Shown here piece after piece: positions 17,288 through 21,083 of a DNA stretch of 34,471 nucleotides. The notes beneath the pieces were generated by a model that saw only the letters and a list, made by a program, of their open reading frames with translations, did not search any database and was not told the origin of the DNA. The stretch comes from Deltaproteobacteria bacterium (GTDB lineage Bacteria; JACQOV01). The stretch covers positions 1-34,471 of the forward strand of contig JACQOV010000098.1 in the NCBI GenBank assembly GCA_016202395.1. The letters run 5' to 3'. How positions within the stretch are numbered: the stretch's first letter is position 1; the number at the start of each line of letters is the position of its first letter. Both the position numbers and the translations under genes were made by a program.

Positions 17288-18538
17288 TCACCAAGGAATA
17301 AAGATGGGCCAGTACCAGAAGCCCCCATGATAACGATCGTTTTCAGGAACTCGAACACCGAGATCCACAGTAAACATCATCGGTTCCGTCCCCCAAAAAC
17401 CATATTGGAAGGAACTGTTAAGGTACAGAGATCGATAGAAAAAATATTTGGCTCCCACCACCAAGATGTCCGAGAACTCCGTCGATTGGAATGTGGCGCT
17501 TCCCCGCGTATCTCCTCTGGCTTCCAACTCGAAATTGAGAAGCTGTAAGGTAAAGCGATTCTCAACGTAAGGAACAAGATTGAATCGATCGATCAACCAG
17601 TGACGCCCTACTCCCAAATACATGTTTAAAAGGGTCAAATCGTTTGTGGTGAGCGAGGCGTTTGGAATGTCAGCATCGGTAAAATCGATAGAGTCGCCGG
17701 AAGCTCCGAGGCCATTGATCTGAAAACCGAATATCCCGTGATATTTTTCCCAGCTATAGAGCATATCAATCGCTACTCCATTCGATTCCACTCGATCGTC
17801 CAATAAACTCGTGGGAATCGTTACATCTTCCAACGAAACGGCATCCAGGCTAGTGATGCCTTCATCGTAAAACCCGAAGCGGATATCTGAGATGTCGTCC
17901 CAAGATCGAACATATCCTAACTGAATATCAAATCCTTTCCGCAGCGGGCTATACTCTTCACGCCATCTAGCCACACGGTCTTCATAGTAGGCAATGAGAA
18001 ACTTTTGCGCGGTCCAATAGGCCTCCGTTCCCTTGCGCACCTTCAAAAACTCTCGGATGGCTTTCGATTTCTCGTTGCCAAAATAATAGTTGTAGCCCAG
18101 CAATAATCGAAGGGCATCGTTATCGGTTTGCTGAGTGAGTTGGGCCAATTCGTCCATCCGTCTTTGATAGGCGCTCCAATCCCCCCAGCTTGACCGAATT
18201 TTGTAATCTTTAAGAGGCAAATCCGGATAAAGATTTAGGAGGATGATGATTTCGACAACAGCTCGGTCATAATCGCCTGTGGCAAAATAAATCTCTTGCA
18301 GACCCATATGAGGCGAAGGATGATTAGGAGTTAAAACCACTGCGTTTTGATAAACCTCTAAGGCTTTCTCAAATTCCCCCAGCCGAAACAACTCCTCTCC
18401 CTCTTCTAAAATCTCCCGCCATTGTTTCTCGGCTTCCTTCTTGTCTTGTTCTTGCGCATGAGAAATAGAAAACGAAAGAACGAGGCCAAACAAGAGGACG
18501 AATTTTGAAAACAAAGAATTGTTTCTCTTCAATAACAT
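17288..18538 (-). CDS. Exported TPR protein with a probable C-terminal outer-membrane beta-barrel
   Basis: Signal peptide ending SHA-Q, TPR helices (GEELFRLGEFEKALEVYQNA, LLGYNYYFG), strand-like aromatic C-terminal half ending FWYWPIFIPW. Confidence 0.7.
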   Translation of the reverse strand: MLLKRNNSLFSKFVLLFGLVLSFSISHAQEQDKKEAEKQWREILEEGEELFRLGEFEKALEVYQNAVVLTPNHPSPHMGLQEIYFATGDYDRAVVEIIILLNLYPDLPLKDYKIRSSWGDWSAYQRRMDELAQLTQQTDNDALRLLLGYNYYFGNEKSKAIREFLKVRKGTEAYWTAQKFLIAYYEDRVARWREEYSPLRKGFDIQLGYVRSWDDISDIRFGFYDEGITSLDAVSLEDVTIPTSLLDDRVESNGVAIDMLYSWEKYHGIFGFQINGLGASGDSIDFTDADIPNASLTTNDLTLLNMYLGVGRHWLIDRFNLVPYVENRFTLQLLNFELEARGDTRGSATFQSTEFSDILVVGAKYFFYRSLYLNSSFQYGFWGTEPMMFTVDLGVRVPENDRYHGGFWYWPIFIPW

Positions 18539-19248
18539 TACTTTTGTAAAAGAGGATCTAATGCCAAGTTGATCGCTTGAATATTTTTCTTTTCGTCAGC
18601 CAGCAATTCCTCCGGAGACATATCCACGAAAGAACTGCCAGAAATTTTGGACAGGGGTTGCACTCCCCCTCTCCCAACATAGAGATCGTTTCCACCCAAA
18701 TCTTTTACTTGGATGACCAGTGAAAAAGCGTGAACAGAACCGAAAGTGCTCAGATTATTGAGCTGCCCCCAAAACCCCTCTTTAGCTCCAATGTACTGTT
18801 TGGCTCCATCCCACCTAGCCTCGGCTTGGTTATATTCCACAGGAACCACTTGAAGTATGTTGTAAAGGATAACATCAATTCCAAAATTCTTCTTCATCTC
18901 TTGAAGGCTCTTCTGCCGAACCGCTTCGACCTTCGTTTCATCCCGTTTTCCCGTCATGGGATCAAAGAAGGGACCAATCTGCTTTTCGTACTTTTTCCAG
19001 AGTTGGGAATATTCATTGGATGGTATTATTTTAAAACCGGCCTCGGTTAATCTCTGCTCAATCAGAGCTTGAAACTTTTGCCTGTTCAATTCCGGTACAG
19101 AATAGTCGGAGGGAACAAACATCGGAGCTAAAGCAATGGTGTGAACATTCTCCAGAAGATTCTCTTCTGGAACCTGATCGGCGTACTTCAGAGTACTAGC
19201 GCAACCAAACTCCAAAATGAAAAATAGCAAAAGCCATCGTCTGTACAT
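18538..19248 (-). CDS. Lipoprotein, paralog 2; possible CsgG/GNA1162-like alpha/beta fold
   Basis: Lipobox FGC, TIALAP...LTEAGFKII pattern, clear similarity to the neighbouring lipoprotein. Fold is an inference. Confidence 0.75.
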   Translation of the reverse strand: MYRRWLLLFFILEFGCASTLKYADQVPEENLLENVHTIALAPMFVPSDYSVPELNRQKFQALIEQRLTEAGFKIIPSNEYSQLWKKYEKQIGPFFDPMTGKRDETKVEAVRQKSLQEMKKNFGIDVILYNILQVVPVEYNQAEARWDGAKQYIGAKEGFWGQLNNLSTFGSVHAFSLVIQVKDLGGNDLYVGRGGVQPLSKISGSSFVDMSPEELLADEKKNIQAINLALDPLLQK

Positions 19249-19266: not shown

Positions 19267-20031
19267 TTAAAAACTGGTCCCTGGTTCCTCTTCCCCCTTA
19301 GAGATGGTAGACGAGACTCCCTCAGAGAGGGGATCTAAAGCAACGTCAACCGCTTTGGCATTACGTTTTGCATCCACAAACAATTCATTCGTTGGAACAG
19401 AAACAAATTTCCCCACAGCCATGACCTTAGACAAAAGCTGAATGCCACCTCTTTTATAATAGAGATGATTCCCGTCGGTATCGTTAACGAATATCTTGAG
19501 AGACAGAGCCCCCATATGACCAGAGGTACCTCCTAGTATGAAACTCGCTCCAAAGGACATCACCGCTTCCGAAACTCCATCCCATTGGGCATACATTCCG
19601 TTCCATCGTGCCTCAACCACCTGAATGCTGGGATGAAGAGTAACATCCACACCAAACTTTTCCTTCAGCACCTGGCAGGTAAGGCGGTACACCTCGTTAA
19701 CTTTTTTATCATCCGCATTTCCTGTTTCTAAATCAAAATATCCCCCAATCTGCTCCTTAAAACGCTCCCAAAGGGCCGAATATTCTTGAGAAGGGATCAC
19801 TTTAAATCCTTGGACCGATAGCTTAGCTTCGATCAAACCCTGAAAATATTGTTCAACCACCTCCGGTTCTTCCAACCCAGTTGGGGCCTGAACGGGAGCT
19901 ACCGCAATCGTTTTAACTTTAGCATAAAATTCCTCTTTCGCGATCTCGAAGGGGTTTGGAGGGGACTTTGTCCCCGCACAACCACCAAGAACCATAATGA
20001 AAGCAATAGAAAAAAGAAAGATTCTCCGCAT
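19267..20031 (-). CDS. Lipoprotein, paralog 1
   Basis: MRRIFLFSIAFIMVLGGC lipoprotein signal starting at ATG20031 with SD AGGAG. The longer ORF start at 20220 would bury the signal peptide. Confidence 0.8.
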   Translation of the reverse strand: MRRIFLFSIAFIMVLGGCAGTKSPPNPFEIAKEEFYAKVKTIAVAPVQAPTGLEEPEVVEQYFQGLIEAKLSVQGFKVIPSQEYSALWERFKEQIGGYFDLETGNADDKKVNEVYRLTCQVLKEKFGVDVTLHPSIQVVEARWNGMYAQWDGVSEAVMSFGASFILGGTSGHMGALSLKIFVNDTDGNHLYYKRGGIQLLSKVMAVGKFVSVPTNELFVDAKRNAKAVDVALDPLSEGVSSTISKGEEEPGTSF

Positions 20032-20076
20032 AACGACTCCTGCTAAAATTGCGCGGTCAAAGTCAATAATGGACTC

Positions 20077-20101
20077 AAAAATAAAGAGGCCGCTTCCTCT
20101 T
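20077..20101 (-). terminator. Putative intrinsic terminator/attenuator upstream of the lipoprotein operon
   Basis: Minus strand AAGAGG-AAGCGG-CCTCTT followed by TATTTTT. Confidence 0.55.
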
Positions 20102-20217
20102 GCCGAAGCGTCGAAATTGCAAACGAGGGACCTACTGCGAAGCGATTGCCATGGTAAAGATAGCCGAATCCAAGCCTCGTTGCTACCCCCCCCCTCGCTC
20201 ACAGATCCTCCTTCGGA
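20077..20217 (-). ncRNA. Candidate sigma54-dependent structured RNA (sRNA or cis-regulatory leader)
   Basis: Bounded by the sigma54 promoter and the terminator. Enclosing helix CCGAAG/CUUCGG and internal helix GCAACGAGG/CCUCGUUUGC. Confidence 0.55.
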
Positions 20218-20227
20218 CAAATCCTAC

Positions 20228-20243
20228 GCAAGAAATGTGCCAA
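20228..20243 (-). promoter_or_regulatory. Sigma54 (-24/-12) promoter
   Basis: Minus strand TTGGCAC-ATTTC-TTGC, matching the consensus TGGCAC-N5-TTGC. Confidence 0.85.
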
Positions 20244-20293
20244 AAAGGTGGTTAGAGAGGGATTTTTCTTAAAATTTTCTAAAAGTGATATAA

Positions 20294-20306
20294 AAACAAT
20301 GAGTTA
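20294..20306. promoter_or_regulatory. IHF-like site
   Basis: AAACAA-TGAG-TTA versus WATCAA-N4-TTR (1 mismatch), in an AT-rich tract between the sigma54 promoter and the palindromes. Confidence 0.55.
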
Positions 20307-20368
20307 TCTATAAATTTTCTTCTAAACCCACGGAAGTTTTTTTCCAAAAAGCCATATCAAACTCCATG

Positions 20369-20412
20369 TTTGTAACAGATCTGATACAAATTTGTAACAG
20401 ATCTGTTACAAA
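20369..20412. promoter_or_regulatory. Tandem 22-bp palindromes, probable enhancer-binding protein sites
   Basis: TTTGTAACAGATCTGATACAAA immediately followed by the perfect palindrome TTTGTAACAGATCTGTTACAAA. Confidence 0.75.
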
Positions 20413-20526
20413 ACTGATCGGCAAAGCCCGGACACTGGATCGATTTTTCCCTACCGATGGCATGAAAAAACTCGAGAGACTCTTCCTTTTTCTCTATCCC
20501 TATGCTACATCTGCTCCACACGTTTT

Positions 20527-20847
20527 ATGATCCCTGCATTGCCCGTATTAGATGAAATCCGACTGGCCTCCCAAAGAGGTCGCACTCGATGGCGAGCTCG
20601 CGCCCAACAACACATGATGGAAAAGAAAATCTGGAGAGAAGACGTCGCACAAATCATCCGCACCGGAAAAATCGTTGAAAACCAGGAGGCGAAACAAACC
20701 TCCGCCCCCTATTTCATCCACGGAAGGCTCGGCGGAGACGATTTCCATGTGGTTCTCCTCTGGGATCCTCATGAAAAAAACATCTCCATCCTGGCGATCT
20801 CGCAACCGTCCCTCTCTAAAACGCCCAGGAGATCTAAGGAGGTCTAA
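20527..20847 (+). CDS. DUF4258-like protein, putative toxin of a type II TA pair
   Basis: RAQQHMMEKKIWREDV..IIRTGKIVE, FIHGR, FHVV pattern, directly upstream of a YgiT zinc finger gene. Confidence 0.7.
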   Translation: MIPALPVLDEIRLASQRGRTRWRARAQQHMMEKKIWREDVAQIIRTGKIVENQEAKQTSAPYFIHGRLGGDDFHVVLLWDPHEKNISILAISQPSLSKTPRRSKEV

Positions 20848-20849
20848 AG

Positions 20850-21083
20850 ATGACATCGCTCCCTAAATGCTCCTTATGCGGCGGCGCCATGAAAGCAGGG
20901 CACACCCCTTTTACCATCGATTTCGAAAAAGGGGTGGTGGTTATCCGCCATGTCCCCGCTCAAGTTTGCAACACGTGTGGGGAAAGCTGGATTGAGGATG
21001 TCACCTCGGCACAACTGGAAATTAGGGTCAAAGCCGCCCAATCCGGCCAACGACAATTCGAAGTCATCGACATGGCAATTTAG
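20850..21083 (+). CDS. YgiT-type (MqsA-like) zinc finger protein
   Basis: KCSLCGG...VIRHVPAQVCNTCGE. SD AAGGAGG. No HTH domain. Confidence 0.88.
   Translation: MTSLPKCSLCGGAMKAGHTPFTIDFEKGVVVIRHVPAQVCNTCGESWIEDVTSAQLEIRVKAAQSGQRQFEVIDMAI

Follow-up and report, generated by a model that had tools for sequence, protein, structure and literature searches.

Enhancer-dependent sigma-54 promoters that combine tandem activator sites with an IHF-induced bend are well described, with glnAp2 and NtrC, nifH and NifA, and pspA and PspF as reference points, and transcription from sigma-54 promoters usually starts 11-12 nt past the GC of the -12 element. GlmY, CrcZ and Pxr are sigma-54-dependent small RNAs (sRNAs), and leaders in which a terminator competes with an anti-terminator are known from the trp, pyrBI and T-box attenuators; attenuators placed behind sigma-54 promoters have, to our knowledge, rarely been described. 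Here we analysed positions 20077 to 20243 of a 34,471-nt contig of a Deltaproteobacteria bacterium (JACQOV010000098.1; this whole stretch is the window), for which an initial annotation had proposed a sigma-54 promoter followed by a novel regulatory RNA in front of a lipoprotein operon. All coordinates are window positions and, unless a plus strand or another contig is indicated, the features lie on the minus strand and are read from higher to lower numbers. We found that 20242-20228 is a genuine activator-dependent sigma-54 promoter that drives the lipoprotein operon via a 186-base leader, and that a pair of palindromes upstream of it is the regulon-defining enhancer of a small envelope-related regulon. 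Overall, the initial observation held for the promoter and the sequence elements, which were in place, but not for the RNA, which was not clearly beyond chance; the leader is not structured as judged by its fold energy, and the stretch is most likely not an RNA gene in its own right.

The promoter, TGGCACATTTCTTGC at 20228-20242, matches the -24/-12 motif TGGCAC-N5-TTGC exactly, with its GG and GC elements exactly 10 bp apart, and is the only exact match in the window. Allowing at most one mismatch gave five matches in the window compared to 1.46 ± 1.15 in shuffled sequences, a number reached in 1 of 100 shuffles. Genome-wide, the strict form TGGCA[CT]-N5-TTGC was found 55 times in the 1.9-Mb, 108-contig assembly, 20242-20228 among them, compared to ~7 expected by our own arithmetic for equiprobable bases. 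The genome encodes rpoN (Sigma54_DBD match on contig C78, 208 bits) and carries 13 Sigma54_activat matches above 200 bits as well as three HU/IHF-family genes. We thereby confirmed the consensus -24/-12 promoter of the initial annotation, and from the distance of 11-12 nt after the -12 GC we infer a transcription start at 20216-20217, where it had been placed. Sigma-70-like promoters were not found between 19500 and 21000 (0 compared to 1.9 ± 1.3 expected), suggesting that the operon depends on read-through from the sigma-54 promoter. That a sigma-54 promoter transcribes the stretch was backed further by the enhancer, the IHF-like site and the regulon partners described below. By eye, a weak internal match to a sigma-54 element, AGGTCC-N5-TTGCA, can also be seen at 20133-20118, resembling motifs on C106 and C15.

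The promoter-distal enhancer site (upstream activating sequence; 20393-20410) is a perfect 18-bp palindrome, TGTAACAGATCTGTTACA, and the promoter-proximal site (20371-20388) has one mismatch to it; the two are 22 bp apart centre to centre, and the proximal one ends 128 bp upstream of the -24 element. With up to three mismatches, TGTAACAGATCTGTTACA occurs 19 times in the genome, namely as nine tandem pairs and one single copy, and the pairs, of the form TGTAAC-N6-GTTACA, keep a spacing of 22-23 bp across loci. They are located at 20371-20410 of the window and on C15, C41, C52, C55, C88, C103 (two pairs) and C106. When 20040-20440 was compared by BLAST to its own genome, only a block of ~44 bp at 20369-20412 was repeated, on seven other contigs, and no second copy of the leader was found. 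Five loci (C41, C55, C79, C88 and C106) have a strong sigma-54 promoter 91-137 bp beyond the pair, and on C52 one follows at 343 bp; none was found within 400 bp of the pairs at C15, which is near a contig end, C103a and C103b. The A+T-rich spacer between enhancer and promoter (GC 0.28) contains an IHF-like site, TAACTCATTGTTTTTA (20291-20306). The motif TAAnTCATTGnTTTTAAA aligned and was conserved in the regulatory regions of C79, C88 and C41, with a looser copy in that of C106, and as judged by eye its letters agree with the IHF consensus WATCAANNNNTTR read as the reverse complement.

The gene sets behind the shared enhancer comprise two MMPL transporters (C41), a 333-aa activator with AAA+ and HTH domains only (C55), a 66-aa Cys-rich open reading frame (ORF) together with a REC-AAA-HTH activator (C88), a 625-aa secreted protein (C106) and, as the fifth set, the lipoprotein operon of the window. 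The position of the C55 activator gene behind the same enhancer suggests that it is auto-regulated. In the mechanism we propose, an enhancer-binding activator would bind both TGTAAC-N6-GTTACA palindromes at 20410-20371, the candidates being the sensor-less AAA+/HTH protein of C55 and the receiver-domain activator of C88, both of which lie behind this enhancer. An IHF-like protein would bend the A+T-rich spacer, and the sigma-54 RNA polymerase at 20242-20228 would be opened and start at ~20216. The transcript would then pass through the 186-nt leader into the genes for two PelC/GNA1162/CsgG-like lipoproteins and a TPR-domain protein.

Compared to glnAp2, nifH and pspA, the locus has the exact GG/GC spacing, two palindromes ~130 bp upstream that are two helical turns apart, an IHF-like site in an A+T-rich spacer and an activator gene that appears to be auto-regulated behind the shared enhancer, but TGTAAC-N6-GTTACA is no NtrC, NifA or PspF site. 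A closer likeness in letters is to the TyrR box, with the consensus TGTAAA-N6-TTTACA and an invariant G-N14-C (PMC4374768); the palindrome agrees with this form at 10 of its 12 defined positions, and the G-N14-C is retained. TyrR itself is a member of this activator superfamily, and the C55 protein matched the TyrR model with an E value of 8.7e-64, yet its 216 bits fell far short of the cut-off of 576. Unlike TyrR boxes, the boxes of the window sit upstream of sigma-54 promoters, and the candidate activator here is without the N-terminal sensor domains of TyrR. We regard the likeness as a resemblance of sequence only and claim no membership. The solid result is ordinary in kind, an enhancer-dependent sigma-54 promoter within a small regulon tied to the envelope, which includes MMPL transporters, two activators and PelC/CsgG-like lipoproteins. 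As this groundwater lineage is represented by the only genome of its phylum in the phylum-level search set, it provides a first regulatory map there.

The leader extends from the predicted +1 to the ATG at 20031 (20032-20217; 186 nt, GC 0.52). Its minimum free energy (MFE) did not stand out from shuffled sequences, either over 148 nt (20217-20070; -49.1 kcal/mol compared to -47.6 ± 3.7, z -0.41, 65 of 200 shuffles as good) or over the full 186 nt (20217-20032; -56.3 compared to -57.0 ± 4.1, z +0.16, 108 of 200), and the ensemble was diffuse, with MFE frequencies of 0.017 and 0.002, respectively. A 38-nt platform at 20112-20075 gave -9.7 compared to -7.8 ± 2.3 (z -0.82, 37 of 200). The MFE and centroid structures both contain a P1-enclosed 5' domain (20103-20216), in which CCGAAG (20216-20211) is complementary to CUUCGG (20108-20103) and pairs with it at a probability of 0.85-0.88; this helix of the initial annotation was thus present as complementary sequence. 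The main inner helix joins 20203-20192 to 20129-20118, where CCUCGUUUGC pairs with GUGAGCGAGGG in the MFE structure, and G-U-rich pairs made by a run of nine G (G9) prevail in the inner domain. Because these two segments pair with each other, the second helix proposed initially (20183-20175 with 20128-20119) had a pair probability of 0.0. The AAGGAGG that had been described as exposed is not exposed in the MFE structure, in which AAG lies inside P1 and GGA is paired. In agreement with the initial remark that no known Rfam family was recognised, a search of the whole window gave no match at gathering thresholds. At E ≤ 10, 22 matches were obtained in 19900-20500, none of them near its gathering score; the best of them, microRNA models with a hairpin shape, fell on the enhancer palindrome instead of the leader, and the only match on the leader strand was a snoRNA model with 16 bits.

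Towards the 3' end of the leader, a weak terminator-like hairpin, AAGAGG-AAGCGG-CCUCUU followed by UAUUUUU, occupies 20077-20101 (stem AAGAGG/CCUCUU at 20101-20084, U-run to 20077), 46 nt before the ATG of the operon. It has 6 bp, three of them G-C, an energy of -6.2 kcal/mol, a U-run of 6 in 8 and a pair probability of 0.62-0.85. An alternative, anti-terminator-like hairpin, CGCUUC/GAAGCG (20091-20110; 20110-20105 with 20096-20091), has -8.1 kcal/mol alone and a probability of 0.09-0.12 in the full leader, and it is the MFE structure of the isolated 38-nt platform at -9.7. The initial claim of mutually exclusive folds stood, as the alternative hairpin overlaps both the enclosing helix and the terminator in sequence, an arrangement that is uncommon under strict rules. 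The hairpin and U-run of the proposed terminator were likewise in place. At the stringency of the scan, three terminator-like sites were counted in 1.5 kb compared to 2.2 ± 1.4 in shuffles, and a survey of the 100 nt after the stop codons of 1427 long ORFs, with 100 nt inside the same ORFs as a reference, showed no enrichment of its class at gene ends. A lax class (stem of at least 5, at least 5 T of 8) was found at 80 of 1427 stops compared to 88 of 1427 inside ORFs, and the class of the hairpin itself (stem of at least 6, at least 6 T of 8) at 16 compared to 16; only longer stems, of at least 8, were enriched (30 compared to 13). The equal counts mean that a hairpin of this class by itself predicts nothing, and short-stem intrinsic terminators play little visible part in this organism, which has Rho. 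A search for Hfq found none in the genome, which is 89% complete.

We also examined competing helices at the 429 genome-wide terminator-like sites with a stem of at least 6 and at least 6 T of 8, in a test that was designed after seeing the case and therefore overstates significance. A competing 6-bp hairpin made of Watson-Crick pairs only was present at 19 of 429 sites. The full three-part logic, in which a competing hairpin extends into the terminator and a helix further upstream could sequester that competitor, was found at 18 sites with 5-bp Watson-Crick helices, at 38 with 7-bp helices in which G-U pairs were allowed, and at 116 with 6-bp helices in which G-U pairs were allowed. Under the strictest rule (6 bp, Watson-Crick only), two of the other 428 sites had it, one inside an HPF-like ORF and the other in a repeat-hairpin array. 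The three-part arrangement is thus not commonplace.

At its 5' end, the leader carries a Shine-Dalgarno (SD) sequence, AAGGAGG (20213-20207), overlapped by the 5' arm of P1, and a GTG (20202-20200; the whole element spans 20200-20213) at +14, 4 nt after AAGGAGG. The GTG opens a frame of 57 codons that runs without a stop into the lipoprotein gene, in frame with its ATG. Of the other 51 sigma-54 promoters that could be assigned, 14 likewise have an SD-preceded start at +11 to +22. The leader frame has a codon score of 0.027, which is ambiguous: it lies slightly under the 5th percentile for real genes (0.043), though most noncoding windows score lower still (median -0.53, 95th percentile 0.175).

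Taken together, it is likely that the stretch combines a sigma-54 promoter with some form of operon leader acting in cis. With 46 nt from the U-run to the ATG and no promoter there, efficient termination would silence the operon, which favours a role in cis over a free-standing sRNA gene. We tentatively favour, with a probability of roughly 0.45, a promoter with a cis-acting 5' leader of the three-gene envelope operon in which the structure is incidental or merely stabilising. The leader would act in cis, its 5' end would fold back on 20108-20103 and cover the SD-like AAGGAGG and the GTG, and the hairpin and U-run at 20101-20077 would be at most a leaky pause or termination point. Several observations weigh against an incidental structure. 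The leader is long by the standards of this genome: for the 52 of 55 promoters that could be assigned, the median spacing between the predicted +1 and the SD-preceded start codon of a frame of at least 60 aa was 41 nt, and 8 of 52 were no shorter than the leader. The P1 domain 20216-20103 is mildly more stable than shuffles (-41.8 compared to -35.7 ± 3.3 kcal/mol, z -1.85, 14 of 200), a hairpin of the class seen here occurs in only ~1.1% of 100-nt windows, and the strict three-part logic was met with at 3 of 429 sites, the window site included. Finally, a strong SD with a GTG at +14 and an open frame of 57 codons is improbable by chance; among 558 noncoding-like windows, 7 had GGAGG and a start in the first 32 nt, and 58 had the 57-codon frame open.

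A possible, if doubtful, alternative is that the leader works as a genuine transcription attenuator. In the default state, P1 would form, the hairpin and U-run at 20101-20077 would terminate transcription, and an RNA of ~140 nt would be released; with the 5' arm occupied, CGCUUC (20110-20105) would pair with GAAGCG (20096-20091), no terminator would form and the operon would be transcribed. The likeliest occupant would be a 30S subunit or a ribosome on AAGGAGG/GTG, with a protein as an alternative. This reading is supported by the rare three-part logic, by three mutually exclusive helices whose states are close at equilibrium (0.85 for the terminator compared to 0.12 for the alternative, which itself is the MFE structure of the isolated platform), by the overlap of the P1 5' arm with a strong SD whose GTG lies at a position usual for this genome, and by the missing promoter after the hairpin. 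Similar to the trp, pyrBI and T-box attenuators, the window has three overlapping helices, a terminator or its competitor, and a ribosome-binding site on the first segment. Unlike them, it lacks a stop codon ahead of the terminator in its leader frame as well as any run of regulatory codons, and the frame continues into the lipoprotein rather than forming a classical leader peptide; neither a known RNA-binding motif nor a family model matches the leader. The hairpin, with three G-C pairs and -6.2 kcal/mol, is also weak, its class is not enriched after genes, and once G-U pairs are permitted, 116 of 429 sites show this logic, in a test built after seeing the case. A new cis-regulatory RNA, that is, a sigma-54-driven attenuator that switches between release of the ~140-nt RNA and transcription of the operon, is rather unlikely; in such a system a ribosome, a protein or a small ligand could occupy the SD-overlapping 5' arm and thereby set the outcome, and the short product could itself be a regulator. 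Such an RNA would matter if real, and for now we treat it as a hypothesis. It is unlikely that the GTG at 20202 is used as a start, giving an additional form of the lipoprotein with an N-terminal extension of 57 residues or serving as an upstream frame for coupling only. The SD and its spacing, the open frame, their low chance rates, the typical position and a codon score above that of most noncoding windows would agree with such a use, but the score does not reach the 5th percentile of real in-frame windows, the lipoprotein gene carries an AGGAG-N5-ATG of its own, both SD and GTG take part in pairs of the predicted fold, and the extension is found in none of 15 homologues, all of which have the signal peptide and Cys18 at their N-terminus.

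A free, trans-acting, sigma-54-dependent sRNA of ~140 nt (20216-20077) that lies upstream of the operon by chance is quite improbable. The layout of a promoter followed by a hairpin with a U-run would suit it, and sigma-54-driven sRNAs do exist, as with Qrr, which is activated by LuxO with sigma-54 (PMC13501541). Similar to Qrr, GlmY, CrcZ and Pxr, the window has a sigma-54 promoter and an untranslated, foldable RNA that ends in a hairpin and U-run. Unlike these sRNAs, which are standalone, conserved and strongly terminated, the leader is unique in the genome, thermodynamically unexceptional, weakly terminated and placed upstream of promoterless genes. The free sRNA of the initial annotation was thus not borne out, with a hairpin of -6.2 kcal/mol, 46 nt before an ATG without any sigma-70-like promoter in 19500-21000, a fold no better than shuffles and no Hfq found in the 89%-complete genome. 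A cleaner candidate of this kind was found on C75 of the same genome, where the strict sigma-54 promoter TGGCACAAGAATTGC at 2525 precedes an RNA of ~89 nt with two hairpins (C75:2525-2637, plus strand). The second of these forms a strong terminator, with a G+C-rich stem of 10 bp and UUUUUAUUU after it; there is no convincing ORF downstream, and the RNA folds far better than shuffles do (MFE -37.1 compared to -23.8 ± 3.0 kcal/mol, z -4.46, 0 of 200 as good). Its only Rfam match, to suhB/mmgR, was sub-threshold, with 23.3 bits where the gathering score is 41. Among the 55 strict promoters, 3 have a terminator-like site of the leader hairpin's class within 400 nt, one of them on C75. The C75 RNA is a much better sigma-54-driven sRNA candidate than the leader, which is unlike it, and probably the better target for the sigma-54 sRNA idea. 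A metabolite riboswitch without known family, with the P1 domain 20216-20103 as the aptamer and a ligand that stabilises or opens P1, is highly improbable. The layout of P1, expression platform and terminator resembles an OFF or ON switch, and the P1 domain reached z -1.85. We saw no evidence of a ligand-binding aptamer in the leader: its two long folds had no excess stability (z -0.41 and +0.16), the second helix was not predicted, the inner domain is dominated by G-U-rich pairing of G9 in a diffuse ensemble (MFE frequency 0.017), and the 16-bit snoRNA model was its only Rfam match at E ≤ 10. The genome has no second copy, none of five homologous loci has such a leader (see below), and the regulated genes encode envelope proteins without an evident ligand.

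In the operon behind the leader, lipoprotein 1 (19267-20031) is a protein of 254 aa, also the product predicted by the gene caller, which begins MRRIFLFSIAFIMVLGGC and has a signal peptide and a lipobox with Cys18; its ATG lies at 20031 and is preceded by its own AGGAG at a spacing of 5 nt. Besides itself, 15 homologues were found (239-285 aa, 31-46% identity), all of which start at the signal peptide, and Cys18 is invariant. Lipoprotein 2 (18538-19248; 236 aa) is a paralogue with 40% identity and the second match of the family profile in the genome; neither lipoprotein matches a Pfam or NCBIfam family. The AlphaFold model of lipoprotein 1 had a mean pLDDT of 86.3, and its Foldseek matches in the PDB were GNA1162 (4hrv, E 1.9e-5), PelBC (9h80, 4.1e-5) and CsgG (4uv2, 7e-5), followed by PelC (5t0z and 5t11), LptE and LpoB. 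The E values of this set ranged from 1.9e-5 to 5.5e-3, with modest TM-scores by query length of 0.3-0.36. The product of the third gene (17288-18538) has 416 aa, a signal peptide and TPR repeats at its N-terminus (Pfam TPR at residues 44-100); from the pattern of its sequence, the C-terminal half is presumed to be an outer-membrane barrel. Together the three proteins may make up a module for export or assembly at the outer membrane, akin to PelB/PelC or CsgG. Similar to these systems, the model fold of lipoprotein 1 matches their lipoproteins and a gene for a TPR-domain partner is part of the operon; unlike them, the operon has two paralogous lipoproteins without a Pfam or NCBIfam match, and no pel or curli genes were seen beside the lipoprotein genes.

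At the DNA level, none of 40 other genomes sampled matched, and contig searches of other genomes, with the single protein and with an alignment, found no relatives of the lipoprotein. A metagenome scan with an 8-row alignment recovered five related loci with 38-46% protein identity. In the 153-500 nt of upstream DNA present at these five loci, neither a TGGCAC-N5-TTGC-like promoter nor a long leader was found. At three of them, the lipoprotein gene follows a TPR gene after a short spacer, and two share a different upstream motif.

The stretch itself was contained in five sequencing runs from two studies, all of groundwater DNA and none of RNA. Contigs of four runs were identical to the window over 20038-20312, and 20313-20368 was spanned by no contig. 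The G9 homopolymer (20186-20194) lies 8 nt after the GTG at 20202 and is one of six G/C runs of at least 9 in the genome. Phase variation at this tract was considered and rejected: G/C runs of at least 8 number 58 compared to ~39 expected by our own arithmetic, and no length change was seen in contigs of three runs. Contigs of two runs break within 12-30 nt of the tract.

On the plus strand, a divergent gene pair at 20527-21083 encodes a 106-aa protein with a DUF4258 match (E 6e-7) and a Zn-ribbon protein of 77 aa, the latter with a weak match to the MqsA antitoxin below the cut-off (E 7e-4); the two genes probably constitute a toxin-antitoxin module. In a run of the second study, one contig extends over 20503-20653 with two differences. 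Elsewhere in the genome, hairpins of the form GTCATyCCC(r)yG-loop-CryGGGrAT recur, with 76 copies by a degenerate pattern, often in small arrays. They were seen at C106:1950-2060, in the leader behind the C106 promoter, at C87:24420-24560 and on C30, C76 and C90. Their stems vary in a compensating manner (CCCGCG/CGCGGG, CCCACG/CGTGGG and CCCGTG/CACGGG), and they look like repetitive extragenic palindromes of the REP type.

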